39,676 bases of DNA, taken from the NCBI GenBank assembly GCA_023267435.1, contig JAHFNH010000006.1, positions 1 to 39,676 of the forward strand, in the 5' to 3' direction. This document shows positions 2,155 through 39,676 of the stretch, piece after piece. The stretch is from Candidatus Nomurabacteria bacterium (GTDB lineage Bacteria; Patescibacteriota; Minisyncoccia; Phycocordibacterales; UBA9973). Position 1 is the first letter of the stretch. The number at the start of each line of letters is the position of its first letter. The notes beneath the pieces were generated by a model that was not told the DNA's origin, ran no database searches, and worked only from the letters and a program-made list of their open reading frames with translations. Position numbers and translations under genes: made by a program.

Positions 2155-2610
2155 ATGAAAAATAAAACTTATGTCGCTTCCATTTTTTTTGGATTAATTA
2201 CTTTTTATGTATTTCATTCCTCACTCCATTTTGACCTAATTCAATCAGGTCTTTTGTCCGGAATGGTTATATGCTGTTGTTCTATAACAGGCTTAGTGTC
2301 TAAGGATATATACGAGCGTGAAGCTACAGGTAAACCGGAAAAGGAATCTGTGCTTAAAAAACATTCTGGTAAAAAACTCAAAGTAGAGGCAAGTTTTTAT
2401 TATGAAAAAAAATCAGGCGATAACACAGTTGCAACTTTGTTTTCTTATCCCGGTAGTCGTGGAAATAATGGTAGTGGTGGTATTGAATTAATTTTCTGTT
2501 ACACAAGTAATAAATTTGAACCCGGTGATGTTATTGATATAACTTATCACGAGGAAGATAACAAATTGTGCTTTGTAGGAAAAGGAATTTTTAAAACTTC
2601 TGCTTTGTGA
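2155..2610 (+). CDS. Hypothetical membrane protein (two N-terminal hydrophobic segments, beta-rich C-terminal domain)
   Basis: Hydropathy pattern. Has its own promoter and terminator. Confidence 0.65.
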   Translation: MKNKTYVASIFFGLITFYVFHSSLHFDLIQSGLLSGMVICCCSITGLVSKDIYEREATGKPEKESVLKKHSGKKLKVEASFYYEKKSGDNTVATLFSYPGSRGNNGSGGIELIFCYTSNKFEPGDVIDITYHEEDNKLCFVGKGIFKTSAL

Positions 2611-2633
2611 ATTATTTCATTGTTAAAAATTTT

Positions 2634-2669
2634 AAGCCCCGAGTATCATTGATACCAGGGGCTTTTTTT
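2634..2669 (+). terminator. Intrinsic terminator between convergent genes
   Basis: AAGCCCC-GA-GTATC-ATT-GATAC-CA-GGGGCTT followed by a T tract. Confidence 0.7.
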
Positions 2670-2686
2670 ATTTCTATTTTTAAATT

Positions 2687-3421
2687 TTATTTAATCTGAA
2701 ACGAAGCTTTGACTGTCACCATTATTTCTTTCTGGATTTTGGAAGTGTCATACATTCCATAATCACTGACTTCAGCTGAATTGGGAGCCATGACTTGCAC
2801 CACGCCACTCGAGGCTGATTTTAATGTTCCGATTTTCTTTCCACCAGCTTCAGCGAGTTTATTTGCGCGAGCTTTAGCATCAGCAATCGCATCTGTTAAG
2901 AGTTCAATGCGAGCATCGGGAAGTTTGGAATAATAGTACTCAAGAGAATTTGTTACAAAAATAACACCTTTGTTGATAACAAGAGAATTGGTATTTTTAG
3001 CTAAGTCAGAAATTTTTTGAACATCGGCTGATTGTACTTCGATATTTTGTACGAGATTATAACTTTTCTCTGCTTGGCTGTTGTTGTCATAAATTTCATT
3101 CATCAAAACAGGGGAGACATCGATTTGTTCTGCGGGTATTCCATTGGAAGCTAAAAAGTTTTTTACTTCTTTCAAGTCGGCATCTAGTTTTACATATCCG
3201 TCTTTCACGGTGGAGAGTTTTACTACGCGAGTGATATTAGAAGTCCATTTTACTTTATCAGATGTATATTCTCTTTTAGCGGATCCGGTAGTAGTGATGT
3301 TATCTGTCGAACGAAGTGAATAAAATGTATAAGATGCGAGAGCAAAACTTATGATAATAGACAGACCTAAGATTAATCCGAAACCAATCAACTTTTGACT
3401 TGTTTTTTCTTTATTTTCCAT
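2687..3421 (-). CDS. SIMPL (DUF541) domain protein
   Basis: N-terminal TM. 'ITTTGSAKRE..SD', 'AIADAKARANKLAEAGG..IG.LKSAS.GV.Q', and C-terminal 'VTVKASFQIK'. Confidence 0.85.
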   Translation of the reverse strand: MENKEKTSQKLIGFGLILGLSIIISFALASYTFYSLRSTDNITTTGSAKREYTSDKVKWTSNITRVVKLSTVKDGYVKLDADLKEVKNFLASNGIPAEQIDVSPVLMNEIYDNNSQAEKSYNLVQNIEVQSADVQKISDLAKNTNSLVINKGVIFVTNSLEYYYSKLPDARIELLTDAIADAKARANKLAEAGGKKIGTLKSASSGVVQVMAPNSAEVSDYGMYDTSKIQKEIMVTVKASFQIK

Positions 3422-3490
3422 AAGCCTATTTTATAAAATATCAGGAATATAAGCAATTTATTTTGTTTTTAAATATGTTATCATAACCAT

Positions 3491-4273
3491 ATGACTTGGG
3501 CTTTCAGACGACAGCTTTTTTATTTGAGTATTTTTGTTGCCTTTTTGGCAATTTTGGGATTTTTAATAATTTACCCGCGTTTAACTAAAGCACCATCTTG
3601 TTCGGATGGAAAACAAAATGGTACCGAGACAGGGGTGGATTGTGGAGGTTCTTGCCAGATAGCCTGTACTTATCAAGTGGATCAAGTTTCGATACTTTGG
3701 TCTCGTGCTTTTGAAGTTGTGCCTGGACGATACAATGCTGTGGCTTATTTAGAAAACCATAATCAAAATACTGCGATCTATAAAATAGCTTATCGATTTC
3801 GTTTTGCTGACAAGGATAATATTTATATCGGCAAGAGAGAAGGCGAGGCTTATGTTCCTCCGTCAGGTAAATTTGCTATTTTTGAACCAGCTATCGATGT
3901 CGGGAATTCCGTTCCTGTTTATACAACTTTTGAATTCACTCAAGCTCCGACTTGGATACAAGTTTCTCAAGACAAGATTGATCAGTTGAAAGTCGCTGTC
4001 AGCCAGATTTCTTTGCAGAATGAAACTGTCAGTCCGAAATTAACCGCTACCATAAAAAATAATTCTCTTTTCCAAATTCCTGAAATAAACGTCGTGGCAA
4101 TTTTATACAACGCGGCCGGCAATGTCGTTTCAGCTAGTCGTACATATCTGGATGTGTTAAATGGAGAGGAGAGCGCTCCAGTCAGTTTTACTTGGCCGGA
4201 ACCTTTTACAGATAAAGTCATCGCTGAAGAAATAATTCCAGTTTACAACATTTTTAATGTTAAGTTGAAATAA
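3491..4273 (+). CDS. Membrane-anchored hypothetical protein with Cys-rich CSDGKQNG.ETGVDCGGSC motif
   Basis: N-terminal TM, Cys motif, two beta-sandwich-like repeats. Abuts rodA. Confidence 0.8.
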   Translation: MTWAFRRQLFYLSIFVAFLAILGFLIIYPRLTKAPSCSDGKQNGTETGVDCGGSCQIACTYQVDQVSILWSRAFEVVPGRYNAVAYLENHNQNTAIYKIAYRFRFADKDNIYIGKREGEAYVPPSGKFAIFEPAIDVGNSVPVYTTFEFTQAPTWIQVSQDKIDQLKVAVSQISLQNETVSPKLTATIKNNSLFQIPEINVVAILYNAAGNVVSASRTYLDVLNGEESAPVSFTWPEPFTDKVIAEEIIPVYNIFNVKLK

Positions 4274-19749: not shown

Positions 19750-19755
19750 TTATTT

Positions 19756-25086: not shown

Positions 25087-25168
25087 ATTGATTTTGGGTA
25101 GTTGAGTATTTACGTTATTTATGGTATTATGAATATATAATTATTAATTAATCAAATTAAATAAATTT

Positions 25169-25696: not shown

Positions 25697-25762
25697 AAAA
25701 ACTTTCTGTGCTAAAATATAATAGGTCAAAATTATAAATTTAATTTTTTAGAATCAAGTTAT

Positions 25763-25825
25763 ATGGCAAAAGGAAATAATGCTCACAAAAAGGAAGTAAA
25801 GAAACCAAAGAAGGCAAAGAAATAA
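25763..25825 (+). CDS. Putative 20-aa lysine-rich microprotein MAKGNNAHKKEVKKPKKAKK
   Basis: ATG...TAA between an upstream AT-rich -10-like region and a strong terminator. Below the ORF-track length cutoff. Confidence 0.6.
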   Translation: MAKGNNAHKKEVKKPKKAKK

Positions 25826-25869
25826 TCTTTGAAAAGCCCCCGAGCATAGCTCGGGGGCTTTTTGTTATT
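25793..25869 (+). repeat. 77-bp direct repeat, copy 1 (3' end of microprotein gene plus terminator)
   Basis: Identical to 26662-26738. Contains AAAAGCCCCCGAGC-ATA-GCTCGGGGGCTTTT. Confidence 0.95.
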
Positions 25870-25943
25870 TTTTTATTTAATGCAATATATTAGTAAAATA
25901 ATTGGGTGTTTTGATTTAAAAAGTTTTGTGATATGCTGCAGCT

Positions 25944-26639
25944 ATGCGAAAAATTTTGGATGACATATTAAGTTATAGAGAAATGTGTGAAGCAGAAAAT
26001 CAGGAAGTTATGCAACACGGAATGAATTTTCATATGAATCATTTTTATTCTGTTGTATTAATGTCTCAAAAATCAAATGCCCCGTATTATGACAAAATTC
26101 ATAATGATGGAATAACTATAGAATATGAAGGTCATGATTTAGCAACAAATTATTCTGAAAATCCTAAAGAACAAGATCAGCCTGAAAAATTACCAAGTGG
26201 AAAATTAACACAAAATGGTTATTTCATTAAAGCAGTTAATGAATTTAAAAAAAATAAAAGTAAACCAGAGTTAGTTAAAGTTTATGAAAAAATATTACCA
26301 GGAACTTGGTCATTAAAAGGATATTTTGATTTGATTGATTATAATGTTGTTCATGATGGAAAACGTAATGTATTTAGATATATTTTAAAATTAGCTAATC
26401 GAGAAGAAAATTCTAGTACAGAAAAAGTAAAACTCGAACACACTAGATTAATTCCTTCACAGGTTAAAAGGGAAGTTTGGAAACGAGATCAAGGAAAATG
26501 TGTTTTGTGTAATGATACAAAAAACCTACATTTTGATCACGATTTACCCTTCTCAAGAGGTGGTACAAGTTTGTCGGTAAATAATGTTCGATTGCTTTGT
26601 ATGAAACATAATCTTCAAAAGTCGGATAAAATTGAATAA
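25944..26639 (+). CDS. HNH endonuclease with SRA/PUA-like N-terminal domain (putative modification-dependent restriction enzyme)
   Basis: C-terminal RDQGKCVLC...HFDH.LPFSRGG...NVRLLC..HN..KSD. N-terminal SVVL....YYD....IEYEG...DQ...N resembles SRA. Confidence 0.8.
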   Translation: MRKILDDILSYREMCEAENQEVMQHGMNFHMNHFYSVVLMSQKSNAPYYDKIHNDGITIEYEGHDLATNYSENPKEQDQPEKLPSGKLTQNGYFIKAVNEFKKNKSKPELVKVYEKILPGTWSLKGYFDLIDYNVVHDGKRNVFRYILKLANREENSSTEKVKLEHTRLIPSQVKREVWKRDQGKCVLCNDTKNLHFDHDLPFSRGGTSLSVNNVRLLCMKHNLQKSDKIE

Positions 26640-26661
26640 AAAATATCTTTATAAAAAGAAA

Positions 26662-26738
26662 GAAGTAAAGAAACCAAAGAAGGCAAAGAAATAATCTTTG
26701 AAAAGCCCCCGAGCATAGCTCGGGGGCTTTTTGTTATT
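26662..26738 (+). repeat. 77-bp direct repeat, copy 2
   Basis: Identical to 25793-25869. Confidence 0.95.
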
Positions 26739-26795
26739 ACTTGTAATTTTTGTTATAATTTAAGTATTAAAAGAATTTAATTATATGAATTAGTT

Positions 26796-27317
26796 ATGGC
26801 AACAAATTTCAGTACAAAAAGTGGTGGAAATATAAAAAGTAAAACAGAACTTAGGGGTAACGAATACGGCAAAGCAGAAAAGGGCGTGATTGTTTGCAGT
26901 GTTTGCCATAATGTTTATTTTAAAAAAGGATGGCACAAGGCTGGCAGTGAACCAATAACAGAAACCAAGCTTTCTGGTACAGGAGTTCATTTTGATTTAT
27001 GTCCTAGTTGTAAAATGAAAAAGGGTAATCTTTACGGAGGAAAAGTAACTATCAAAAATGTTCCAGCTCTAACTCGTGATGAATTATTTAATCTTGTTGC
27101 TGGTTTCGGAAGACGTGCTACAGATCGTAATCCTCAAGACAGAATTATGGATGTAAAAACTACAGGAGGGAATTTTGTGGTAACTACAAACAATGACCAA
27201 CTTGCTGCAAAACTTGGACGCAAGATACACGAGACTTTTAAAAAGACAGAAATAAAAACTTCTTTTACTTCTGAGCCTCAAGAGGTTAGTAATGTAGAAA
27301 TAGTTTTTGCTAAATAA
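26796..27317 (+). CDS. Zinc-ribbon protein, BCAM0308/NMD3-like
   Basis: CSVCH.VY.KKGW, LCPSC, G.VTI, RNPQDRI, VTT..QLA.KLG..I...F. Confidence 0.7.
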   Translation: MATNFSTKSGGNIKSKTELRGNEYGKAEKGVIVCSVCHNVYFKKGWHKAGSEPITETKLSGTGVHFDLCPSCKMKKGNLYGGKVTIKNVPALTRDELFNLVAGFGRRATDRNPQDRIMDVKTTGGNFVVTTNNDQLAAKLGRKIHETFKKTEIKTSFTSEPQEVSNVEIVFAK

Positions 27318-27319
27318 AT

Positions 27320-27934
27320 TTGAATCTTTTTACTAAAAAAGAAGAAGCCTTGCTCAAGAAATTAAATACACCCACCAAGGTGCAGGACTTTTTAAATAGT
27401 CTGGAATTCAATTTTGAGCGGGATGGAAAAGATACTCTAAAATCACCAATTATGACCTTACGAGCAGGGAATGCGCATTGTATCGAAGGTGCAATTTTAG
27501 GGGCGTATATTCTCTCATTACACGGTTTTAAACCTCTTATAATGCATTTAGAGACCATTAAAGACAGGGATTTTGACCATGTTGTAGTTCCTTTCCAGCA
27601 AGATGGACTTTGGGGTGCATTATCGAAAACAAACCACGCAGTATTGCGTTATCGCGAGCCAGTGTATAAAAATATCCGTGAACTTGTGATGTCGTATTTT
27701 CATGAATACTTTTTAGATAATGGTACGAAAACCTTGCGCAGATATTCTCGTCCGCTTAATTTAAATGTTTTTGAAAAAAAATGGTTTCAAGAAGATGGCG
27801 ACTTGTGGGGGATAGATGAAGAACTCGATAAGATAAAGCACTACGATATAGCACCAAAAAGTGTTTTTAAAAAAATGCGCAAAGCAGACAAAATAGAAAT
27901 AGAAGCCGGTAAGATTTCAGAATATAAAATATAA
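27320..27934 (+). CDS. Transglutaminase-like protein (TTG start)
   Basis: LNTP.KVQDFL, AHCIEGA, DHVV, WGALSKTNH.VLRYREPVY. Confidence 0.75.
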   Translation: MNLFTKKEEALLKKLNTPTKVQDFLNSLEFNFERDGKDTLKSPIMTLRAGNAHCIEGAILGAYILSLHGFKPLIMHLETIKDRDFDHVVVPFQQDGLWGALSKTNHAVLRYREPVYKNIRELVMSYFHEYFLDNGTKTLRRYSRPLNLNVFEKKWFQEDGDLWGIDEELDKIKHYDIAPKSVFKKMRKADKIEIEAGKISEYKI

Positions 27935-27962
27935 ACCACATAGGATAATCCTATGTGGTGTT
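27934..27962 (+). terminator. Probable terminator hairpin
   Basis: ACCACATAGGAT-A-ATCCTATGTGGT. Confidence 0.6.
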
Positions 27963-28039
27963 GTGTACTTTTTATATAATATGGAGGGTAGTCCTTGATG
28001 TTTTATTAAAAAACATACGGAGGGGAACCCTTCGTATGT

Positions 28040-28069
28040 TTGACAAATGACTATATTTTGTGCTACTAT
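28040..28069 (+). promoter_or_regulatory. Sigma70-type promoter
   Basis: TTGACA-18 nt-TACTAT with extended TG. Confidence 0.6.
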
Positions 28070-28141
28070 TTTTAGTAGGTAAAGAAACCGATTCCTTATA
28101 TCGGCTCAGCATGTAATTCGTAAACTTAATACTTAAGCAAA

Positions 28142-28846
28142 ATGGCAAAAGCTGCAACAAGCGGTCAGGCCCGCGCTTTTAATGCGATGACAGTGTCTCG
28201 TATTGATGAGGAAGCCTTGAAACAAATTGATGGTGAAAAACTTCAAAAAATCATCGATAAACCGGAAGAATTTATACCAAACTTTATTGCTTGGATAAAT
28301 AACGGATGTAAAATATCAAACCAAAATACTGTACAAACCTTAAAAAATCTAGCATTCATTTGTGAGATTTTAATAAGAGATTTTTCAGAATTCGTGGTTT
28401 GGGATAGATTCCAACCAAGAGCTGAAGATAAAGTTAGTATCTCACTACGCTTTGGAGGCAATTTTATAAATTGGATTCTAAACCCAATGAAAATGAAAAA
28501 AGTATCGCTTGTAAATGGTTTAAAACTGAAGAAATTTAGTTTGTTAAAATCAATGAATGATACTGAAATCCAAAATGAGTTACAAAATCCAAAACCAATA
28601 GATGTGGAAATATTTTTACCACTGATATGGGCAATGATGCTTTCACAGAAGAACGGTGAAGTAAAAGAAAATGGATTACTTAATAATGGATATGCAAATA
28701 TTTTTCATGTGAAATTGGATGACAATCGTGTTGTTGCTGTGAGCGTGTTCTGGCACACTTCCGGGTGGCGTTTGGGCGCAGATGGGTTTGACTATCTCGG
28801 TCGTTTTGAAGTTGGCGGTGCGTTCTTTACTCCCGCTACTGCGTAA
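28142..28846 (+). CDS. Hypothetical protein (234 aa)
   Basis: ORF with its own promoter and terminator. C-terminal 'GLLNNGYANIFHV...VAVSVFW..GWRL'. Confidence 0.7.
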   Translation: MAKAATSGQARAFNAMTVSRIDEEALKQIDGEKLQKIIDKPEEFIPNFIAWINNGCKISNQNTVQTLKNLAFICEILIRDFSEFVVWDRFQPRAEDKVSISLRFGGNFINWILNPMKMKKVSLVNGLKLKKFSLLKSMNDTEIQNELQNPKPIDVEIFLPLIWAMMLSQKNGEVKENGLLNNGYANIFHVKLDDNRVVAVSVFWHTSGWRLGADGFDYLGRFEVGGAFFTPATA

Positions 28847-28868
28847 ATTGTGTAGCTTAAAATTATTT

Positions 28869-28906
28869 AGACCCTTCGTATCTTTTGATACTTTGGGTCT
28901 TTTTTT
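28869..28906 (+). terminator. Intrinsic terminator
   Basis: AGACCC-TTC-GTATC-TTTT-GATAC-TTT-GGGTCT followed by a T tract. Confidence 0.6.
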
Positions 28907-28926
28907 ATGTTAAAATAAAACTATAA

Positions 28927-29541
28927 ATGAACAAGCCATCTAAAGGAATAATAATTGCACAGATCTTTTTAATCTTTATATTGCCCGTGGCACTGCTTTA
29001 TTTTAAGATTTTATCTTATGACTGGAGGATGGTTTTGTTGTTGATTGACTCTTTAGTTATTTATGGAATCATTCGGCATGAAAATTGGACTTATGAAGAT
29101 CTGGGTTTGCATCATCACAATATTAAAAAGGCTTTGCCGTTTTACGCATTCTTCACTGTTTTAGGTCTTATTGCTCTTTTTGTGATTGATCATAGGGTGA
29201 ATATGCCGGATGTTGAAACAAGGATTTTTTTTATAAAAACTTTCGCTTTTTTCATACCGATTTCTTTCTTTCAAGAATTTGCTTTCAGAGCTTTTCTCAT
29301 ACCCAGGCTGAGAGAAATTTCTAAAAATAATTATATAATAATTTTTTCAAATGCAGTTTTATTTACTCTCATTCATATAATATATCCTTATCTGGGAATC
29401 AGCTTGCCGATCGCTTTCGTGTCCGGTATTTTCTTCGCTTGGCTTTATGTAAAGTATCCAAATTTATTACTCATATCAATATCGCACATGATTTTAAATG
29501 TAACTGCGTTACTGCTCGGCTTCTTTTATATAGCTAATTGA
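28927..29541 (+). CDS. CPBP (CAAX/Abi) family intramembrane metalloprotease-like protein
   Basis: QEFAFRAFL (QE instead of EE), FTLIH, HMILN motifs. Confidence 0.82.
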   Translation: MNKPSKGIIIAQIFLIFILPVALLYFKILSYDWRMVLLLIDSLVIYGIIRHENWTYEDLGLHHHNIKKALPFYAFFTVLGLIALFVIDHRVNMPDVETRIFFIKTFAFFIPISFFQEFAFRAFLIPRLREISKNNYIIIFSNAVLFTLIHIIYPYLGISLPIAFVSGIFFAWLYVKYPNLLLISISHMILNVTALLLGFFYIAN

Positions 29542-29617
29542 AAATAGTAGGAACCTGCTATAATATTAGTATTACTAATTAATTTTCCTGCCCAGCAGGA
29601 TTTAAAATTTAAAAATT

Positions 29618-30004
29618 ATGATTTATTTATTTGTTTTAGGACGCATTTTGTTTGGAGGTTTTTTCTTAATGAGCGGATATAGTCATATGAAGAATATGAA
29701 AATGATGTCAGGCTATGCAGGCTCGAAAGGAGTGCCAATGCCTACCGCAGCAATATTTGTTACCGGACTGCTACTTCTTTTAGGCGGAGCGGGAGTGATT
29801 TTAGGGGTTTATGTTAAATTTGCTCTTCTTTGTCTTGCACTTTTCTTAATTAGTGTAACATTTAAAATGCATGATTATTGGAATGTTCAGGATCCAATGC
29901 AGAAAATGACTCAAGAGTTAAATTTCAAGAAAAATTTAGCACTTCTTGGAGCGGTATTTATGGCCTTAATGATTCCATTACCTTGGGCTGTAACATTGTT
30001 TTAG
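29618..30004 (+). CDS. DoxX family membrane protein
   Basis: GRILFGGFF..SG..H, GVPMP, MHDYW, FKKNLALLG. Confidence 0.88.
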   Translation: MIYLFVLGRILFGGFFLMSGYSHMKNMKMMSGYAGSKGVPMPTAAIFVTGLLLLLGGAGVILGVYVKFALLCLALFLISVTFKMHDYWNVQDPMQKMTQELNFKKNLALLGAVFMALMIPLPWAVTLF

Positions 30005-30011
30005 TCTCTTT

Positions 30012-30052
30012 AAAATAAAAACACGAAAGCAAAGCTTTCGTGTTTTTATTTT
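30012..30052. terminator. Bidirectional terminator between convergent genes
   Basis: AAAATAAAAACACGAAAGC-AAA-GCTTTCGTGTTTTTATTTT. Confidence 0.8.
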
Positions 30053-31200
30053 ACGTCTTTTAGTCGAAGTGTTATTAAAAATCCGCAAAACATAACAGCA
30101 CCTAAAATAAAAAATAAATATTCAAAAGATGGTATTAAAAAAAGAATCGGCACGGCTAGAAGGGGAGCTATGATATAAGAAAGAGGATAGGTATTTCTAA
30201 AAAAACTGATAGCATCTGCTCTTTCAGAGTTCACAACTTTAAAGAAATAACTTTCAGACATAACTTCTATTATGGCAGCTCCGACACGAGTGCCAAAAAG
30301 GATTATTGCCCAAAGTATTAAGTCTGCTCCTTTTATGAAAGGAATCATTAAGGCGAAAAATGCAGTTATTAGAAATCCGGACAAGAGCATTTTTTTCTCG
30401 CCGATTTTATCCGACAATTTACCGAGAGGGAATTCTAAAATAACGAAAGGTAATAACATGATAGTGAAAATTAAACCTATTTTATCCCAAGTGAAGCCTA
30501 TATGTTCGTGCAAAAAGATCGGGGTGTAAATAACCATCCAAGCGAAGAAAAACTTCAATATAAAATTTATAAAATATATTCTAGAAATATTTTTATCTTG
30601 GCGGAAAAATGACAGAGTTTTTAATACAGGAACTTTTTTATATACAGGATCCTTGAAATCTTTCAAGAACATAATAAATATTCCTGCTACTAACGCCATA
30701 AACACTGCGGCAAAAACATATATTCCTTTGTAAGAACTTTTATCTATGATGGTACCAGAAACCATTTGGGCGACAACCCAAGCTGAATTTGCGACGACTA
30801 AAAAAAGCCCGCGAAGCTTGCCAATATTTTTATCTTTAGAAAATTCTTCAACAAAAATATCTAAAGTTGCAATAATGAAATTACCTGAAGCGAAGTAGGC
30901 GATAAATGCCAAAATAACTGGAATTTTCTGGTTGAGAACACTAAGCGCAAGAAGTGATACTAGGCAGATTAAACTGAATATCAGAGTGGCATAGCGGTTG
31001 CCGGTACGTCGAAGAAGCCTGGGCATTTCCAGGAGGCCGATTATTGTCACAATAGAAGCTAGAACATAAACTAGTCCGACATAATTTTCACTGACATAAG
31101 ACTGCAAGAAGCTCGAATTGACGTATGAAGTCAAAGCCAAGTGGATGGAAAATAAGAACCCAGCTAGATATACTATTTTTCTGTCATTTTTAAGGGTCAT
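30046..31200 (-). CDS. MFS transporter
   Basis: About 12 TMs; GKLSDKIGEK motif A. Confidence 0.88.
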   Translation of the reverse strand: MTLKNDRKIVYLAGFLFSIHLALTSYVNSSFLQSYVSENYVGLVYVLASIVTIIGLLEMPRLLRRTGNRYATLIFSLICLVSLLALSVLNQKIPVILAFIAYFASGNFIIATLDIFVEEFSKDKNIGKLRGLFLVVANSAWVVAQMVSGTIIDKSSYKGIYVFAAVFMALVAGIFIMFLKDFKDPVYKKVPVLKTLSFFRQDKNISRIYFINFILKFFFAWMVIYTPIFLHEHIGFTWDKIGLIFTIMLLPFVILEFPLGKLSDKIGEKKMLLSGFLITAFFALMIPFIKGADLILWAIILFGTRVGAAIIEVMSESYFFKVVNSERADAISFFRNTYPLSYIIAPLLAVPILFLIPSFEYLFFILGAVMFCGFLITLRLKDVK

Positions 31201-31212
31201 TTTTGAGTAATT

Positions 31213-33153
31213 TTAGACACTTAAAACAACTGGAATAACGAGAGGGCGCTTGGCTGTTTTTTGGTAAAGGAATTTTGAGACAGTTTCTCCGACATTGTTC
31301 TTAATGTAGTCAAAATCAACCGGATTCATATTAGCCGTAGAATCTTCTACGCTTTTTTTAATAATTATTCTGACTTGGCGCAAGAGCTCTTGGTTTTCTT
31401 TAAGATAAACGAATCCGCGAGAGATCAAATCAGGAGATTTTTTTAGCTTGCCGGTATTTTGGTCAACTAGTGCAATGATAACAAACATACCATCTTGAGC
31501 TAGCATTTGGCGGTCACGAATAACGACATCTTGCACATTACCGATAGCGAATCCTTCCACCATCATAGGTGCTGATGGAGCTTTTTCTTTTAAGACTACT
31601 ATTTTTTTTCCTTCATTTTGAATTTCAATGATTGAGCCGTTGTCTGGAACAATAATATTTTCTCCCGACATTCCCAAAGACATTGCAAGTTCTTTGTGTA
31701 ATACAAGCATGTAATGGTTTCCGTGAATTGGAATAAAGAATTTAGGATGAGTTTTTCGGTGCAACCATTTTATGTCTTCTTGGTTTCCATGACCTGTCGC
31801 ATGAATATATTCTTCACTTGTACGATAGCTGATTATTTTTACTCCTTGGCGGGAAAGATTATCTTTTAATCCTTGCACAGCCATTTCATTGCCGGGAACA
31901 ATAGATGCTGAAAGAATAATAGTATCTCCTTTTTGGAGACTAAATTTTGTATGTGTCTTGTTTGCGGCACGATTGAGTGCGGCGAATTCTTCTCCTTGAG
32001 CTCCAGTCATCAGTACTAAGATTTTATTGGGAGGATAATTATTGGCTTCTTCAACAGGAATAATCGTGCCTTTTTTTGGTTTAAAAATTCCAGCTTGTTC
32101 GCAGACTTCTAAGTTTGTTTTCATAGAGCGTCCTTCAAGAATAACTTTTTTCCCCAATGATTCAGCAATTTCAACAATTCTTACCAAGCGAGTGATGTGC
32201 GAAGCGAAAGCTGCGATGATGATTCTACCGCTTATTTTTTTTATTAAATTTTCCATTCCTTCATGCACTTTCACTTCTGCTAAAGCAAATCCTTCGTTTT
32301 CCACATTGGTAGAGTCAGTCATAAGGAGCAGAACATTTTCTTTATCAAAAAATGCATATTCTTTTTCTTCTTCTGCGCTTACTACGCCATCAATTTGGTC
32401 AAGTTTATAGTCACCCGGATTTATAATATCTCCGTACGGAGTTTCTATGACGACTCCGATAGAGTCGGGCACTGTATGAGTCACACCGAAAAATCTTATG
32501 CGAATTTTACCTGCATAAACTACGCTATCTTTTTCAATAATATTAACATTGAGAGGAGGTAGGTGAGTGAATTCAGCTTGACGCTTTTGCATCAATAGGA
32601 TTGTTAGGTTTCTGGAATAAACTGGTGGATTGCCTATACGTGACATCACAATAGGAACACCCCCGATATGGTCTAAGTGTCCATGAGTTATTATGACTGC
32701 GCGAATTTTTTCTTTTCTTTCTTCAAGATAAGTGGTATTTGGAATAATATAATCTATACCCGGAGTGTCTTCAGTCTTGAATTGCATACCAGCATCGATA
32801 ATGATGATATCATCTCCGATTTCAATGGCGGTCATATTTTTTCCAACTTCTTCAACTCCACCTAAAGGTATAATACGAATATTACCATTTTCAAGTTTAG
32901 GAATTTTTTCACCAGAGCTTCTTGAAGCTATTGATTTTCCATGACTAAGAACCGGAGTTGGTGTGTGTCGTTTTTTACCAAATTTAGAAAATTGAAAGGT
33001 AGAATTTTTAGGCTGGAATTTTTTATGCGGATTGTTCTGCGCAGGATGGTGCGGTGTTTTGTGTTCTATTTTATGTTCGACTTTGTGTTGTTCTTGTTTT
33101 TTATCTTCAATACTGACTGAGCTGAAAGATAGTCTTGTTTTTTTTCTTATCAT
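31213..33153 (-). CDS. rnj: Ribonuclease J
   Basis: IPLGGVEEVGKNM, THGHLDHIG, HTVPD, DSTN, TGAQGE, HATGH, FIPIHG. Confidence 0.96.
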   Translation of the reverse strand: MIRKKTRLSFSSVSIEDKKQEQHKVEHKIEHKTPHHPAQNNPHKKFQPKNSTFQFSKFGKKRHTPTPVLSHGKSIASRSSGEKIPKLENGNIRIIPLGGVEEVGKNMTAIEIGDDIIIIDAGMQFKTEDTPGIDYIIPNTTYLEERKEKIRAVIITHGHLDHIGGVPIVMSRIGNPPVYSRNLTILLMQKRQAEFTHLPPLNVNIIEKDSVVYAGKIRIRFFGVTHTVPDSIGVVIETPYGDIINPGDYKLDQIDGVVSAEEEKEYAFFDKENVLLLMTDSTNVENEGFALAEVKVHEGMENLIKKISGRIIIAAFASHITRLVRIVEIAESLGKKVILEGRSMKTNLEVCEQAGIFKPKKGTIIPVEEANNYPPNKILVLMTGAQGEEFAALNRAANKTHTKFSLQKGDTIILSASIVPGNEMAVQGLKDNLSRQGVKIISYRTSEEYIHATGHGNQEDIKWLHRKTHPKFFIPIHGNHYMLVLHKELAMSLGMSGENIIVPDNGSIIEIQNEGKKIVVLKEKAPSAPMMVEGFAIGNVQDVVIRDRQMLAQDGMFVIIALVDQNTGKLKKSPDLISRGFVYLKENQELLRQVRIIIKKSVEDSTANMNPVDFDYIKNNVGETVSKFLYQKTAKRPLVIPVVLSV

Positions 33154-33197
33154 TTTTTATTTTTACTTACTTTTAATTAGCTTATAATATTTTTAGA

Positions 33198-33214
33198 TTA
33201 GCCGATGAGGCTGA
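33198..33214. repeat. GCC-GATGA-GGC hairpin, same family as the rRNA spacer hairpins
   Basis: TTAGCC-GATGA-GGCTGA directly after the SBP stop codon. Confidence 0.7.
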
Positions 33215-34978
33215 TTATTTTGAAAATATTTTCCAAACGTTGTCTTTTTCTGTATACCACAAATATGAATTCAAGAAACGATCAGAAGGGGAGATGATGT
33301 GATCTATCGAAATACCTTCTAGATTGTTTGAAACGACGTATATAAAATCTGGACTGTAGATAAATACTGCCGGCATATCTTTTTTTATTTCATCTTCAAA
33401 AGCCGCATATTTTTTAACGCGATTTTTTTCATCAAGCGTTATTAGTGCATCTTCTAAAAGTTTGTCTACTTTAGTGTTGGTATACATTGCCACATTAAGT
33501 CCTGGATCTTTTCTTTGAGAAGAATGCCAGAAAGCAAAAAGATCTGATTCGTGGTTTATAATCTGCCCGAAAAGAAGCGAATCATATTTGCGCGGACGGA
33601 TGACTGTCTGATTTAGATTTCCTATTTCAAAAGTTTTTACGTCAACTTTTATACCGATACTTTCCAAATCTGTTTTTATTAGATCAGCAGTTTTAACAAG
33701 CTCCGGCGCATTACCAGTGGAGATTGAAAATTCTAAACTAGCTTTTGCTTTTGTGGTCTTACCTTTTTTCTTGGCAGTGGTTGTCTTTTCTAAGAATCCG
33801 TCTGCGCCTTTTGTCCAGCCGTCTTTTGCTAATATGCTTTGTGCTTTTTGTAGATTATCTTCGTGTGAAGTTTTATCTTCTACACTTAGTTTTTGATAGG
33901 CAATCATGTTTGGTGGAATAGGGTCGTTTATGACTACTCCATAACCCTTCAAAACTTCTGTGACGATCTTGTCTTTATCTATTGCTTGATTGATAGCTTC
34001 GATGACGTGTTTATCAGTGAATATTTGCGCTTGGTTCTGGTTGAAGAACAATCCAAATACGCGTGGCAAGACAGAGGATTCTATGCGATATCCTTTTTCT
34101 TTCAACATCTCTGCGTTTTCCGGAGTTATGGAACTCACTTGATTTACTTCTCCATTTTGCAGTGCTGATATAAGATCGTTTTCATTTGGATAAAATCTTA
34201 ATGTTATATTTTTAATATAAGGTTTGCCCAATATGAATTTTTTAAATAATGAAAGATTGTAATAATCGATTATTCCAGATGATTGCTTGCTGACATCAGA
34301 TACTTGGTAAGGCCCCGATCCGATTGGATTTATATTTGCGTCGTTCAATTCGACAGGGGAATCTTTCCACACATGTTCAGGCATGATACCGAGAGTCATA
34401 TTTTCCAAAAATGATGCATACTGCCTCTTTAAAGTGAACTTAATTGTTTTTGCATCTACTATTTCTACAGAGACGCCATCCCAATTTCCTTTAATCGGAC
34501 TTTTAATAAGAGGATCTTTAGCTTCGTTGATAGTGAATAAAATATCTTCAGCTGTGACGGGCTTTCCATCGTGGAAATATATTTTATTTTTCAAAGTGAA
34601 AGTGTAAGTGAGCCCGTCTTTTGAAACATCATAGCTTTCCGCTAAATCTGGAATGAGCGTGCCGTCAGGGTTTTTTCTCATAAGGCCGGAATAAATGAGC
34701 GATACTAGATCACGGTCAGCGTCGGATAATGCCAATAGTGGATTTACGAAACGGGGAGTACCCACGATACCTTCGGAGATAGCTCCGCCTTGCATTGGCA
34801 CTTCTGTCATGAATGATTTATTTATTTTTTCTAATATTACTACTGTGCTGACAAAAAGAACAATTGTCAGACCAAGAAAAATAAACCATTCTTTTTTTGA
34901 AAAGTAGGAAAAGGTAGACCTTATTTCGTGTTTTTTAGGCAATTTAAAATTGCGTATGCGGCTATAGAAATTTTCCAT
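33215..34978 (-). CDS. Peptide ABC transporter substrate-binding protein (family 5), TM-anchored
   Basis: LIYSGL, PDLAESY, YTFTL, FHDGKPVTAEDILFT, PIGSGPY. Confidence 0.92.
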   Translation of the reverse strand: MENFYSRIRNFKLPKKHEIRSTFSYFSKKEWFIFLGLTIVLFVSTVVILEKINKSFMTEVPMQGGAISEGIVGTPRFVNPLLALSDADRDLVSLIYSGLMRKNPDGTLIPDLAESYDVSKDGLTYTFTLKNKIYFHDGKPVTAEDILFTINEAKDPLIKSPIKGNWDGVSVEIVDAKTIKFTLKRQYASFLENMTLGIMPEHVWKDSPVELNDANINPIGSGPYQVSDVSKQSSGIIDYYNLSLFKKFILGKPYIKNITLRFYPNENDLISALQNGEVNQVSSITPENAEMLKEKGYRIESSVLPRVFGLFFNQNQAQIFTDKHVIEAINQAIDKDKIVTEVLKGYGVVINDPIPPNMIAYQKLSVEDKTSHEDNLQKAQSILAKDGWTKGADGFLEKTTTAKKKGKTTKAKASLEFSISTGNAPELVKTADLIKTDLESIGIKVDVKTFEIGNLNQTVIRPRKYDSLLFGQIINHESDLFAFWHSSQRKDPGLNVAMYTNTKVDKLLEDALITLDEKNRVKKYAAFEDEIKKDMPAVFIYSPDFIYVVSNNLEGISIDHIISPSDRFLNSYLWYTEKDNVWKIFSK

Positions 34979-35016
34979 ATGTTATGTATGAATGAAAACG
35001 ATGCCCGTTGGCAGTT

Positions 35017-35262
35017 TTAGTAGTTGTTAGCTTTTATTATTATAGCTAGGAATGCAGACAACGCAAATAATATTCCAGAAACTATTGAAAGAATAAAAAG
35101 GAATTTTTCAAAACCTCGGCGAGTATGGTGGAAAGATCCGCCATCGCCCCCGCCCAAAGCGCCACCTACGCCTGCGCTGGATTGCTGGAATAAGATAGCT
35201 AATATGAGAACTATTGAAAGTATTACCTGCGCGTACGGCAGTATTTTGGCTACTAAATGCAT
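35017..35262 (-). CDS. secG: Preprotein translocase subunit SecG
   Basis: ILFQQSSAGVGGALGG..HTRRGFEKFL; two TMs. Confidence 0.92.
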   Translation of the reverse strand: MHLVAKILPYAQVILSIVLILAILFQQSSAGVGGALGGGDGGSFHHTRRGFEKFLFILSIVSGILFALSAFLAIIIKANNY

Positions 35263-35338
35263 GAGGCTATTATTGCATATATGAGGTTTAAATGCAAATA
35301 TCCTGCATTTTTAAGGGTAGAATTCCTAGGATAGGAGC

Positions 35339-35368
35339 TTGACAAATGGGTAGTGGTTGTGCTATACT
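35339..35368 (+). promoter_or_regulatory. Sigma70-type promoter
   Basis: TTGACA-18 nt-TATACT with extended TG. Confidence 0.65.
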
Positions 35369-35586
35369 TTCCCCAGTATTTGTACCTTGAAAATCTTCAT
35401 TTCTTAAGTCGGAAACAGCACTTTGGGCATCTCTATTTTATAGAGACGTCTAAAAAGCTGTTTCCGACCCTGATTAATTTTTGATTTTTCATGGGTTTGG
35501 TCTAGCGGACCGGTTCAATTGAACCGGTTCAATAAAAAATTGTAGATAACTAAATAAAATAATAATTTTTTAAAAACCAAAACAAA

Positions 35587-37407
35587 ATGAAAAAACAACT
35601 ATTAATTGTGTTGATATCCTTAATGGGATTTAACACGTTCGCTTTGACAGTAACTGTGTCAGCAAACTTTTCGAGTACAACCAGTACTCAAGCAATTAGC
35701 TCTATTGGCTGGACGATACATGGCGGTGTTACTTTATGGAACTCTGCCAATTATTTTGAGCTTTATTACCAGGTGGTAGACTCTACTACTGGAGTTACTT
35801 CACCAGTTCAAATGTTAACTTATGGGGGTACTGCGGGAGATTCAGTTAATACTACCGGAGTTTCTTTTACTTTGACAGGATTAACTGCGGGAGATTATTA
35901 CAAAATAATTCCGCGTCTTGATTTATGGCAGAATAATGTGCTTGTAACAATGGCAGTTGGTGTACCAATGGTTTTTCAAACCCAGTGTGCTCCGCCTACA
36001 TTAAGTGCAAGTCAAACATCAGTGTGCAGTGGAAGTTCTGTAAACTTAATTGCAAGCGGATCAAACACATACACATTGGATAACACAGGTCAGACAGGTT
36101 CATCATTTATTGTTAATCCTGCTGCTACTACTACTTATACAGTAACAGCAGTGACAGCCAGTGGTTGTTCAAGTACAAATAGTATTACAATAACAGTGAA
36201 TTCAGTGCCGACCATTACCGTTTGTCCTGATCCTACCATTTGCCATGGAACTTCAACAGTTTTGAGTGCCAGCGGTGCAACGACCTATTCATGGTTACCA
36301 GCTACTGGATTAAGCAATGCAACAAGTGCATCACCGACTTCATCAGCAACAAGTACGACTGTTTATACCGTAACTGGTACCACAGGAGGCTGTAGCAATA
36401 CGGCTACCGTAACAGTTAATGTAACTGGCATTTCATTGAATACAGGTTCTAATGTAACTATTTGCCAGGGAGGTTCGACAACTTTAAGCTCTTCAAATGC
36501 AACTGTTTATTCTTGGTCACCGACCAATGGTTTGAGCGATCCGACTATTGCAAACCCGGTTGCCAATCCCAATGTTACAACTGTTTATACAGTAACTGGG
36601 ATAAATGGAAGTTGTACAGCAAAAGATAGCGTTAAGGTGAATGTGAATGTAAACAATACGAATGCAACTCTGACTGTTCCATCATCGAATCCTTGCAAGA
36701 TAGCCATGAATCACACTGTGACTCTTTCCGGCTCTCCGGCTCTTGGAGTATTTAGCGTCAACGGGAACCCTTTATCGGGAACTTCGCTTGATTTGTCTAC
36801 AATACCAGCAGGGAATACAGTTGTAGATTATACTGTGACCAACACTTATGGTTGTACAAAAACAGTATCGGCTAGTTTCGTCAACGATTCTGCGCCGATT
36901 GTGTATAGTTCAACAGCACCTGTTGGTACTACCAGTAAATCGTTCGATGCTAAAGGAGCATTCATTGATGATCTTAAAGTTATGGTTGTTGGTAGCAGTA
37001 CCATTTACAGTGCTTCTTTGCAAAACATGACATCTGCATCGTTTAATAATCTTCCGGCAACGTTAGTTCCGGGATCGAAAATTAAATTTTTGTATGGTGG
37101 TGTTGGAACTTCATGTTTTACAGATCAGGAAGCTGTGAGCGTACAGGAAGTAGTTAAGAATGAAGATGTTTACATTTATCCGAATCCTTTTGTTAGCGTA
37201 TTGCATATCGGAGTTCCTTTCGGGGAATATAAGATTACAATTACTAACATGCTTGGACAAGTAGTTCAAGATCTATCAGCACAGGGAGATAATTTCGAAG
37301 TAGAGAAGGGAGATTTATCCCCCGGTAAATACTTTGTAACTATCGTTTCTGCTAAGAATAAGGACGGAAAAAGCTCAACGGTTGTAAAACCGATTGTTGT
37401 TCAGTAA
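35587..37407 (+). CDS. Secreted beta-repeat protein with T9SS type-A C-terminal sorting domain
   Basis: Signal peptide; repeats TIC.G.ST.LS.S.AT.YSW.P..GLS....A.P...TT.YTVTG..G.C; C-terminus IYPNPF...ITNMLGQVV...LSPGKYFVTI...KPIVVQ. Confidence 0.85.
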   Translation: MKKQLLIVLISLMGFNTFALTVTVSANFSSTTSTQAISSIGWTIHGGVTLWNSANYFELYYQVVDSTTGVTSPVQMLTYGGTAGDSVNTTGVSFTLTGLTAGDYYKIIPRLDLWQNNVLVTMAVGVPMVFQTQCAPPTLSASQTSVCSGSSVNLIASGSNTYTLDNTGQTGSSFIVNPAATTTYTVTAVTASGCSSTNSITITVNSVPTITVCPDPTICHGTSTVLSASGATTYSWLPATGLSNATSASPTSSATSTTVYTVTGTTGGCSNTATVTVNVTGISLNTGSNVTICQGGSTTLSSSNATVYSWSPTNGLSDPTIANPVANPNVTTVYTVTGINGSCTAKDSVKVNVNVNNTNATLTVPSSNPCKIAMNHTVTLSGSPALGVFSVNGNPLSGTSLDLSTIPAGNTVVDYTVTNTYGCTKTVSASFVNDSAPIVYSSTAPVGTTSKSFDAKGAFIDDLKVMVVGSSTIYSASLQNMTSASFNNLPATLVPGSKIKFLYGGVGTSCFTDQEAVSVQEVVKNEDVYIYPNPFVSVLHIGVPFGEYKITITNMLGQVVQDLSAQGDNFEVEKGDLSPGKYFVTIVSAKNKDGKSSTVVKPIVVQ

Positions 37408-37422
37408 AGAATAAAGAATGCA

Positions 37423-37458
37423 TAAGCCTTGAATGAAAATTCAAGGCTTATTTTTTTT
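37423..37458 (+). terminator. Intrinsic terminator
   Basis: TAAGCCTTGAAT-GAAA-ATTCAAGGCTTA followed by a T tract. Confidence 0.8.
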
Positions 37459-37483
37459 GTATTTTTTATAATGTATTTACACA

Positions 37484-37521
37484 AATTAAAAACCCTCCAA
37501 ATGAATGGAGGGTTTTTAATT
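37484..37521 (-). terminator. Intrinsic terminator of the surface-protein gene
   Basis: AATTAAAAACCCTCCA...TGGAGGGTTTTTAATT. Confidence 0.75.
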
Positions 37522-37530
37522 ATTTAATCT

Positions 37531-39675
37531 TTAAGCTTTAGGATGTGTGATGTATAACTTTCTTCCGATGATAGCTAATGCTATGATCGCAAGTATTAGA
37601 AATAGCCATCCGATCAATCGAGGCAGGGAACTTAATGCGAAGATAGAGTTCGCTTCAAGTCCGGTGCCTGTTGTCACAGAGTTTGTCACATAAGATATTT
37701 CATCTTTACTCAAGCTTGATCCGGTGACATTATAAGATGCCACTGCGGTAGTCACAAGAACATTCTGAAGGGAAGCATTAGAGTTAACTTTGCCTTTTAT
37801 TGTCATTGTACTTGTCTGATTTGGAGCCAAAGCTTTTATGTCGAAGGTTACAATGTTATTGCTTTCTAGCGTGCCTAGATCAGATTCAGTGAAATCAATC
37901 TCACTTGGAAGCTGGACGGTCAATTTTATATTTTCAAGATTCTTTGAAGCGACATTTTCGAAAGTTACAGAATAATCTACTTCATCTCCGACTGCGAGCT
38001 TTTCTTTCGTGGTTGTGATTCCAAGCTTGGCTGTCGCAACTCCAGAATAATCTTGAGAAGAATTGTTTGTGTCGTTTATAACTGGCACGTTATCCATGGA
38101 ATTTATAACATTAACATTTGATCCGTCTCCTGCTGTTGGAATTGTATTTGTATTGTCTGTCACTAGGACTATGTTGGGAGTTTGGAAGACAAGAATGTTT
38201 CCGTCATGAATCACACCTTGATTCACAGCTACTGCTCGGAAGTAGTAGATCGTATTTGGAGTTAAGTTCGTAACTACTTCTGAGAAGCTTATTGAAGCAG
38301 CTGTGCCTAAAGATTTTTGAGGTGTTGATAGATTTAAAGCAGATGTCTTTCCATATTGGAAATATCCTGTTGTTGCGGATCCATTTTGATTGATAAATAA
38401 TCCGTTCAGTTTTGCTGAAGTGGAAGTTTTCTGAGTTGCTTGAATTGTGGTGATTACTCCATTTAAGGAAGTTGAACCATTGGTAGGTGTGGTTGTGTTT
38501 GTTGTTGCGGGAGTAGTGGTTGTAGTTGTCTGGAAAGAAAGAATATTTCCTTTGACTGTGCCATAAGAATTGTTTGCGACAGCACGGAAATAATAAGTTG
38601 TGTTGGGAGTGAGGCCTGTAATATTTTGTATTAAAGATGAAACTACACTTGCTGTGCCTTGAGATGTGTGAACTGTCTCACTTGGAGTTCCTGCTAAAGT
38701 GCTTGAAGTGTTGTATTCAAACCAAGCTGTTGTCGGTGATCCATCTGGATTGATTGAACCGCCCAATGTTGCTGAAATGTTTATAACGTTTGTAGCATTC
38801 TGAGTGATGACTGTAGGTAGGAATACAATTCCACCACCTCCACCCCCGCCTCCACCACCGCCTATTGGGTTAATAGTGAAAGTAGAAGAACCAGATGTGC
38901 ATCCGCCATTGGCAACAGTAATATTTCCAGTACCAGCAGTAGTTGTGTCAGCTACGGTTAGACTAATAGTTAAAGAAATTGGACTCAAGACATTTGTTGT
39001 TCGTGCTGTTCCATTGAACAATGCAGAAGAAGTTCCGTTTACAAAATTGTTACCTGTGACAGTGACAAGAGTTGCTCCAGCTCCAGCTGTGACTGAATTA
39101 GGAGAAAGTAAAGTGATAGATGGACTTAATCCGCAACCGCCTCCTCCGCCAACTGCCAAAGTTGTAAAACTAATATTTGAGTTAACAAGATTTGGTCCGT
39201 CAGTAGCGACAAGCTTGTAGGTATATGAAGTGTTCGCTGTAAGTCCAGTCAAAGAAAAAGGAGGCAAGGTGACATTACCAATTCCTGTGATTCCGTTGAC
39301 TTGTGATCCCGGAAGGGTATTACCATTTTGATCTTGATACCAAACATTGATAGTTGTTCCATTTGGATTAACTACGCCGTTTAGAGTAGCTGTAGTTTGA
39401 GTGACGCCTGTTGCAGTGGCGGAGATGATGGAAGCGACAGGAGCTACTAGAGTTGTAAAACTAATATTTGAGTTAACAAGATTTGGTCCGTCAGTAGCGA
39501 CAAGCTTGTAGGTATATGAAGTGTTCGCTGTAAGTCCAGTCAAAGAAAAAGGAGGCAAGGTGACATTACCAATTCCTGTGATTCCGTTGACTTGTGATCC
39601 CGGAAGGGTATTACCATTTTGATCTTGATACCAAACATTGATAGTTGTTCCATTTGGATTAACTACGCCGTTTAG
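37531..39675 (-). CDS. Large surface protein, 5'-partial (FN3-like repeats, IPT/TIG domain, Gly and Thr linkers, DUF11-like domain, C-terminal TM anchor)
   Basis: GLTPNTTYYFRAVA-type FN3 motifs and PSITLLSPNS IPT. The frame stays open to the window end because 39559-39676 is an in-frame copy of coding 39268-39385. Confidence 0.88.
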   Translation of the reverse strand, partial: LNGVVNPNGTTINVWYQDQNGNTLPGSQVNGITGIGNVTLPPFSLTGLTANTSYTYKLVATDGPNLVNSNISFTTLVAPVASIISATATGVTQTTATLNGVVNPNGTTINVWYQDQNGNTLPGSQVNGITGIGNVTLPPFSLTGLTANTSYTYKLVATDGPNLVNSNISFTTLAVGGGGGCGLSPSITLLSPNSVTAGAGATLVTVTGNNFVNGTSSALFNGTARTTNVLSPISLTISLTVADTTTAGTGNITVANGGCTSGSSTFTINPIGGGGGGGGGGGIVFLPTVITQNATNVINISATLGGSINPDGSPTTAWFEYNTSSTLAGTPSETVHTSQGTASVVSSLIQNITGLTPNTTYYFRAVANNSYGTVKGNILSFQTTTTTTPATTNTTTPTNGSTSLNGVITTIQATQKTSTSAKLNGLFINQNGSATTGYFQYGKTSALNLSTPQKSLGTAASISFSEVVTNLTPNTIYYFRAVAVNQGVIHDGNILVFQTPNIVLVTDNTNTIPTAGDGSNVNVINSMDNVPVINDTNNSSQDYSGVATAKLGITTTKEKLAVGDEVDYSVTFENVASKNLENIKLTVQLPSEIDFTESDLGTLESNNIVTFDIKALAPNQTSTMTIKGKVNSNASLQNVLVTTAVASYNVTGSSLSKDEISYVTNSVTTGTGLEANSIFALSSLPRLIGWLFLILAIIALAIIGRKLYITHPKA

Positions 39676-39676
39676 A
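39160..39676. repeat. Intragenic tandem repeat, 291-bp period
   Basis: 39160-39385 is identical to 39451-39676 (226 bp visible; the second copy is cut by the window end). Confidence 0.93.

Follow-up and report, generated by a model that had tools for sequence, protein, structure and literature searches.

Near the right end of a 39,676-nt stretch of DNA from a Candidatus Nomurabacteria bacterium (contig JAHFNH010000006.1; the window, below, means this whole stretch), an open reading frame (ORF) encodes a protein built like a surface protein of Bacteroidota. It begins with a Sec-type signal peptide, continues with Cys-paired immunoglobulin (Ig)-like repeats, and ends in a C-terminal domain (CTD) of the type A family known from type IX secretion system (T9SS) cargo. 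The genes on either side are of the kinds found in the candidate phyla radiation (CPR). The target gene, its parts, and its signals are as follows.

35587..37407, plus strand: target gene, an uninterrupted ORF with an ATG start, 606 amino acids
35587..35643, plus strand: Sec-type signal peptide, residues 1-19, by inspection of the translation
35647..35991, plus strand: N-terminal domain, residues 21-135, no Pfam match at E<=10, predicted local distance difference test score (pLDDT) <60
35986..36657, plus strand: three Cys-paired Ig_7 (CHU_C-associated) repeats, residues 134-357, PF19081
36658..37167, plus strand: two further beta-rich domains, residues 358-436 and 437-527, no Pfam match at E<=10, pLDDT mostly 39-74
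37168..37404, plus strand: type A T9SS CTD, residues 528-606, by PF18962, TIGR04183, motifs, and predicted fold
35339..35368, plus strand: sigma-70-type promoter, TTGACA-18-TATACT with TG before the -10, 11 of 12 positions matching
35375..35586, plus strand: putative structured 5' leader of ∼212 nt, counted from a predicted start site
37422..37451, plus strand: intrinsic terminator, a 13-pair stem followed by the T-run TTTTTTTGTA

By profile score, motifs, and predicted fold, the terminal domain belongs to the type A CTD family and is complete, as the original prediction had claimed. It exceeds the cut-offs of PF18962 Por_Secre_tail in Pfam (32.6 bits; cut-off of 27) and TIGR04183 in NCBIfam (31.9 bits; cut-off of 23), both over residues 530-592, and it reaches the last residue of a protein that, by inspection, has an N-terminal Sec-type signal. 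The P-N-P and G-x-Y motifs and a Lys six residues from the end (VVKPIVVQ) align with 29 Bacteroidota CTDs, and the Gly of NMLGQ is invariant in the alignment with Bacteroidota CTDs. In Porphyromonas, the Gly of the loop between strands beta3 and beta4 and the C-terminal region are described as mattering for secretion (PMC11285876), and the near-invariant Lys close to the C-terminus is the conserved residue described as contacting PorV in solved complexes (PMC10994853). A model of the CTD alone (last 95 residues; pLDDT of 84.8) is predicted to form a seven-strand Ig-like sandwich; the type A CTD is described as a compact seven-strand Ig-like 3+4 beta-sandwich (PMC11285876). Foldseek matches of this model include the CTD of mirolase (8qb1_A, TM 0.68/0.73), the translocon-bound CTD of NucA (8glk_D, 28% identity, TMt 0.73), the CTD of RgpB (7pq4), PorU, PorZ, and the RemA CTD. 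The top match is a DUF3244 protein (4g5a_A), and many generic fn3-like and beta-glucuronidase sandwiches are matched as well.

The passenger carries the Cys-containing, Bacteroidota-type repeats that had been read from the sequence. PF19081 (Ig_7) exceeds its Pfam cut-off (31.1 bits; cut-off of 27.3) in three stretches with a Cys pair in every repeat. GhpA, the grappling-hook protein of Aureispira, a predator in the Bacteroidota, is the sole sequence match in the PDB at E<=0.01 (E 6.9e-22), and fragments of it hold 8 of the 12 top ranks when the whole predicted structure is searched with Foldseek. This AlphaFold2 model of the whole protein, built on a 32-row alignment, has a mean pLDDT of 69.1; confidence is high in the repeats (88-98 over residues 131-355) and the CTD (90-95) and poor elsewhere.

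The remaining domains have few relatives. A search with the N-terminal domain against 1.84 billion representatives returned five proteins at E<=0.001 beyond the window's own. Three are true relatives, P0245, P0247, and P0248, with identities of 50%, 38%, and 31%, respectively; P0246 and P0249 were rejected as matches of fn3/PKD repeats over ∼30 residues. P0245 (458 amino acids) has the same domain order as the target with one Ig_7 repeat and a CTD (PF18962, 49.3 bits), and domain by domain the two proteins are 34-51% identical throughout. Another protein, P0058, matches the target from the repeats through the CTD at 39% identity. When residues 358-436 and 437-527 were joined and searched with phmmer, no match was found at E<=1 except the target itself; in pairwise BLASTP, the two domains are 35% and 34% identical to P0245 and 40% and 34% identical to P0058.

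The signal peptide claimed for the target is consistent with its N-terminus, which, read by eye, consists of MKKQ, a hydrophobic stretch, and NTFA ahead of LTV. The combination of MKK and a hydrophobic stretch likewise opens P0245, P0247, and P0248. Past the signal peptide, the translation has no transmembrane segment, lipobox, or other evident anchor.

Transcription signals frame the gene. The promoter is the best of 47 sigma-70 sites in positions 25000-39676 (14.7 kb). Housekeeping promoters of Bacteroidota follow another consensus (TTTG at -33 and TAnnTTTG at -7), so a canonical sigma-70 promoter would be a signal from the recipient's side. The resemblance noted earlier to a promoter at 28040 holds as well: the composite TTGACAAATG-N11-TGCTA occurs at only two sites in the window, 28040 and 35339, which have 15 bases in common, in a pattern that was drawn post hoc from these same two sites, making its shuffle statistic circular. 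The promoter at 28040 (28040-28141) drives an ORF of 234 amino acids (28142-28846) for which no Pfam or NCBIfam match was found. Shine-Dalgarno sequences are generally missing upstream of genes in the window, including the target.

The leader folds at -67.9 kcal/mol (z of -7.7 relative to 200 shuffles). It contains a long hairpin at 35408-35468, formed by an inverted repeat with 29-nt arms that are 83% complementary, followed by a T-rich tract and then the perfect palindrome ACCGGTTCAATTGAACCGGT at ∼35508-35527. Comparison with Rfam at E<=1 gave chance-level matches only. The leader may work as an attenuator, give rise to a small RNA, or bind a protein. At the other end of the gene, the terminator is followed by a second hairpin, at 37484-37521, which lies behind the convergent right-flank gene.

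Three neighboring genes bear on the identity of the genome.

31213..33153, minus strand: RNase J, housekeeping gene used for CPR placement
35017..35262, minus strand: secG (TIGR00810, 43.3 bits), left flank of the target
37531..39675, minus strand: right-flank surface protein with DUF11, fn3-like, and CoaZ domains and a C-terminal transmembrane anchor

Judged by RNase J, the secG-SBP-RNase J synteny, and an insertion in the 23S rRNA gene, the genome is that of a Paceibacteria-like member of the CPR. A search of a species-representative genome collection with RNase J found 167 relatives, and the loci of the best 80 of these 167 (1.29 Mb) were taken for comparison. RNase J is 70-85% identical to these best 80. 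Their titles name a CPR taxon in 67 cases (Paceibacteria, Paceibacterota, Nomurabacteria, Parcubacteria, Patescibacteria, Komeilibacteria, or Saccharibacteria), only "bacterium" in 13, and another phylum in none. In 68 of 80 loci, as in the window, RNase J has a secG homologue upstream of it on the same strand, and the left-flank order secG-SBP-RNase J is syntenic with these 68; most of the other 12 have too short an upstream flank. At the start of the window, the 3' end of the 23S rRNA gene (1-760) contains a 352-nt insertion (∼121-472) near model position 2620, in place of 6 nt in the bacterial model. An rRNA gene with an insertion is described as a CPR hallmark (PMC11270868). The 5S rRNA gene follows at 891-997; downstream of it are ordinary genes and no tRNAs.

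The right flank also has relatives in the CPR. Among the matches listed, relatives of the surface protein are 40-50% identical over nearly the full length. Among at least 120 listed, 13 of the 14 relatives with organism names are from CPR and the remaining one is a low-ranking match in Deltaproteobacteria. Atlas entries, which serve as leads only, also indicate CPR phyla. The C-terminus (37531-37640) has the conserved FLPSTLLGW-type motif, in the window as the variant LPRLIGW, together with a transmembrane helix and basic residues. PF18962 was found in none of the 120 listed relatives. With CPR relatives and synteny for the genes on the left and a membrane-anchored surface gene on the right, the description of the flanks as CPR-style in the original prediction is upheld.

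More widely, proteins of this CPR surface family (P0126-P0174; positions 365-520 of the locus L075, introduced below) end in F-L-P-S/T-T-L-L-G-W, a transmembrane helix, and Arg/Lys, often with a terminal D-H-I-D/N-N-L-P-M. From its sequence, this C-terminal signal looks like the sorting signal of some machinery.

A comparison of 40 ORFs of the 39.7-kb window with T9SS components gave no match at E<=1e-5. In profile searches, SecD, SecF, and SecG are all encoded within the window. Adjacent genes at 19366-20307 encode a thioredoxin-fold protein and a DsbB-family protein, a pair that suggests extracytoplasmic disulfide formation in this CPR cell and would be relevant to Cys-paired surface proteins. 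Elsewhere in the window, two identical 35-nt GC-rich terminator hairpins (25830-25864 and 26699-26733) lie 869 nt apart, and the ORF between them (25944-26639) has a weak IscB/HNH-like match.

The affinities of the target itself are with Bacteroidota. Among 120 listed relatives, all 22 with organism names are from this phylum, including Chitinophagaceae, Rufibacter, Nibribacter, Fluviicola, Flavobacterium, Cytophagaceae, Sphingobacteriales, and others; one further listed relative is labeled just "anaerobic digester metagenome". The listed relatives match mainly the repeats, covering 25-77% of the query with identities of 31-54%. A tblastn search of the 80 CPR loci (1.29 Mb) with the target protein found nothing at E<=1e-3, and the protein cluster of the target has two member sequences on one contig. 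The horizontal acquisition that had been proposed is likely, given Bacteroidota affinity inside CPR flanks, as an old transfer and not as a recent one. Because the best collinear relatives are only 31-50% identical, and because GC content at third codon positions (GC3) and codon usage match the window, the data fit a gene that was transferred long ago, retained, domesticated, and probably expressed. The GC3 of the target is 0.288 in a range of 0.145-0.386 and its synonymous-codon likelihood has a z of -1.43 in a range of -3.13 to +4.56, both across 41 genes of the window. The most likely source of the gene is a neighbor or host of the CPR cell.

A second CTD gene is present in another Paceibacteria-type neighborhood. 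A hidden Markov model (HMM) of the CTD, built from the 29 Bacteroidota CTDs and the target, was used to search the window and the 80 loci, 5,031 ORFs in all. Its matches were the target, a protein in locus L075, and, weakly, a protein in locus L059; the last match was dropped (E 0.11, internal rather than C-terminal). A CTD gene is therefore found in 2 of 81 Paceibacteria-type neighborhoods, in the same variable slot.

2200..4101 of locus L075, plus strand: CTD gene, 633 amino acids, CTD at the extreme end (PF18962, 45.8 bits)

Locus L075 comes from a contig of 156.8 kb that has the gene order secG-SBP-RNase J-MFS, as in the window. Its CTD gene, at a distance of 3.7 kb from secG, is flanked by a CPR-type surface gene and a 16S rRNA gene. 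The surface gene has fn3-like regions and the C-terminal anchor in common with the right-flank family of the window, and the 16S rRNA gene shows 82-87% identity, from end to end, to its positional counterpart in a Nomurabacteria locus. A sigma-70 promoter matching at 12 of 12 positions lies 37 nt upstream of the start of the L075 CTD gene, and a terminator lies past its stop. Its passenger is unrelated to that of the target; the nearest Atlas clusters, again leads only, are families that combine fn3 and Por_Secre_tail, with Bacteroidota as the most frequent phylum. The protein is recorded on seven contigs and has three full-length relatives (70%, 59%, and 55% identity), all with PF18962. In this family the CTD is 44-74% identical and the passenger 58-90%. 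The signal peptides all end FA-Q, and a signal peptide ending before Gln is described as the Q-rule of Bacteroidetes (PMC5837995; PMC10653852).

In locus L051, as in L075, a 16S rRNA gene lies upstream of secG and the slot lies beyond it. The slot proteins of the two loci (L051, 604-2121; L075, 2200-4101) are both secreted, with signal peptides that end Ala-Gln in the pattern of the Q-rule, and the CTD is found in that of L075 alone. By eye, the 505-amino-acid protein of L051 had been considered to end in a decayed CTD, which was unsupported by BLASTP and Pfam.

We read the locus, with a probability of roughly 70%, as part of the chromosome of an ultra-small, Paceibacteria-type CPR bacterium with a horizontally acquired and domesticated Bacteroidota-type gene for an extracellular multi-Ig protein, in which the CTD is an orphan. 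The protein would leave the cell through the Sec machinery for which the window has genes (SecD, SecF, and SecG), its signal peptide would be cleaved, and its Cys pairs would be oxidized by the DsbB/thioredoxin-fold pair. Outside the cell it may serve as an adhesin-like stalk whose two ends are the rare N-terminal domain and the CTD. The CTD has most likely been kept as a stable terminal beta-sandwich or a binding module. CPR are proposed to lack an outer membrane (10.1101/2025.01.22.634366) and T9SS genes are reported absent beyond the Fibrobacteres-Chlorobi-Bacteroidetes (FCB) phyla (PMC11285876; PMC11205867). Because CPR are held to have neither an outer membrane nor a T9SS, we infer that the CTD cannot serve as an export signal in this CPR cell, and the target is not expected to be functional T9SS cargo there.

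Several observations weigh against this reading. The database gene call for the target (P0001, 594 amino acids) begins at Met13 (35623) and lacks the signal peptide. As three relatives all open with MKK and a hydrophobic stretch, 35587 is the better start and the public call is likely a start-codon error. The tetranucleotide profile of 35263-37530 is atypical (r of 0.73 relative to a median of 0.94 across 65 chunks). The CPR-family gene of the right flank is equally atypical (r of 0.69), so the profiles do not discriminate origin; on the composition of the encoded proteins, they may reflect Thr/Ser/Asn/Gly-rich repeat proteins rather than foreignness. P0248 has no recognizable CTD, and in P0124, of the L075 family, the CTD is more diverged (44-55%) than the passenger (58-90%); either may mean relaxed selection on the CTD.

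The atypical tetranucleotide usage of the region, together with the Bacteroidota identity of all organism-named relatives, would also be expected if a Bacteroidota fragment had been misjoined into a CPR contig during assembly or binning. This is highly improbable because both flanks are CPR, such that two junctions within 2.3 kb would be needed. The GC3 and codon usage of the gene are typical of the window, its promoter has a 15-base composite in common with another promoter of the window (a post hoc pattern), the right-flank CPR gene departs as far in tetranucleotides, and the independent 156.8-kb contig of L075 carries the same kind of insertion. It is very unlikely, too, that the gene is a neutral passenger or decaying relic, no longer or never useful, whose CTD persists for lack of time. 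The small cluster (two sequences on one contig), the lack of an orthologue in the 80 related loci, and the diverged or missing CTDs of P0124 and P0248 are consistent with decay, but the frame of 606 codons is intact in a reduced genome, and codon usage and GC3 are fully ameliorated, a process slow enough that an unused gene would be expected to break meanwhile. The promoter, the best sigma-70 match in 14.7 kb, and the clean terminator also count against a relic. If the CTD is just a leftover, the locus reports an ordinary horizontal transfer of a surface protein.

The two other alternatives give the CTD a function. Within the CPR cell it may have taken on a new role, such as non-covalent anchoring to the cell's own wall, S-layer, or surface glycans, making the target an adhesin that needs no transmembrane anchor. 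The absence of any evident anchor past the signal peptide is consistent with this, as are the strong promoters of both CPR CTD genes and the use of a C-terminal transmembrane anchor, with PF18962 in none of 120 listed relatives, by the neighboring native family. We nevertheless consider repurposing unlikely, as no precedent was found, the CTD has a generic Ig-like sandwich fold that is not known to bind walls, and CTD genes are on just two CPR contigs among 81 neighborhoods. It is likewise unlikely that the CTD mimics cargo of a host T9SS, binding the extracellular loops of free PorV or being processed by the PorU attachment complex of a Bacteroidota host and so fixing the CPR cell or its protein to the host surface. 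In favor of mimicry, score, motifs (with the Lys near the C-terminus and the Gly of the loop), and predicted fold all show an intact CTD, and in solved translocon complexes CTDs are described as binding the extracellular loops of PorV, which the Lys contacts (PMC10994853). An unrelated second CTD protein is encoded in another Paceibacteria contig and four members of its family retain the CTD. In one aquifer study, Bacteroidota rank with the groups more often predicted as donors to Patescibacteria (6 events in 33 metagenome-assembled genomes; PMC12455944), which makes a Bacteroidota neighbor plausible but does not make Bacteroidota the host. Against mimicry, SprA inside the pore is described as contributing ∼1,000 of the 1,850 square angstroms buried (PMC10994853), a surface that a ligand outside would not reach, and CTDs can be incompatible even between two species of Bacteroidota (PMC11285876). 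As no anchoring of the target to the CPR cell is evident, binding alone would leave the cell untethered, and the CTD has diverged in P0124 and been lost in P0248. In its boldest form, which we regard as improbable, some Paceibacteria have repeatedly captured Bacteroidota T9SS cargo genes and retain the CTD as the working part, and the Sec-exported CTD docks from outside onto PorV loops or the PorU/PorZ complex of the host. If true, the surface-display machinery of the host would be a receptor for the epibiont or its secreted proteins, and host range would be marked by the two unrelated CTD families next to the secG cluster that both CPR genomes share.

Hosts and attachment mechanisms are known for few Paceibacteria, and a domesticated, apparently well-expressed Bacteroidota-type protein is a clue to their neighbors. 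Annotators should not take the label "T9SS type A sorting domain" as evidence of a T9SS. Por_Secre_tail is "mostly" in Bacteroidetes according to a survey of fibrillar adhesins (PMC8286594). Among the main texts that our literature search covered on CPR or Patescibacteria with T9SS or CTDs, no paper described CTD proteins from CPR. It was nonetheless too strong to presume that CTDs have no precedent in organisms lacking a T9SS, as TIGR04183 domains are described in Poribacteria that lack T9SS structural genes (PMC3909097). Orphan CTDs were thus already known and, by profile matches, are now present in at least two CPR contigs.

Compared with known systems, the target resembles type A T9SS cargo of Bacteroidota in its Sec signal, passenger, C-terminal CTD of ∼80 residues, motifs, and predicted fold, but differs in being encoded in the genome of a CPR, a group reported to be without an outer membrane (10.1101/2025.01.22.634366). 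Many of the listed Ig_7 relatives end in a type B domain (PF13585), whereas the target ends in type A. Like GhpA of Aureispira (PDB 9flp and fragments), it has Cys-paired Ig-like repeats; GhpA has 5,898 residues, whereas the target has three repeats in 606, and the likeness is one of sequence and predicted fold alone. The target also resembles the native CPR surface family, large secreted beta-rich repeat proteins encoded beside it and beside the CTD gene of L075. Unlike the target, however, those proteins are anchored by the FLPSTLLGW-type motif, transmembrane helix, and basic residues, and the 120 listed are without PF18962. Poribacteria offer a parallel in that CTD proteins are described there in a symbiotic lineage without T9SS structural genes, but Poribacteria are not CPR and their CTDs are mostly on eukaryote-like repeat proteins (PMC3909097). 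The passenger of the target is instead a Bacteroidota-type Ig_7 array, in a lineage held to be without an outer membrane.

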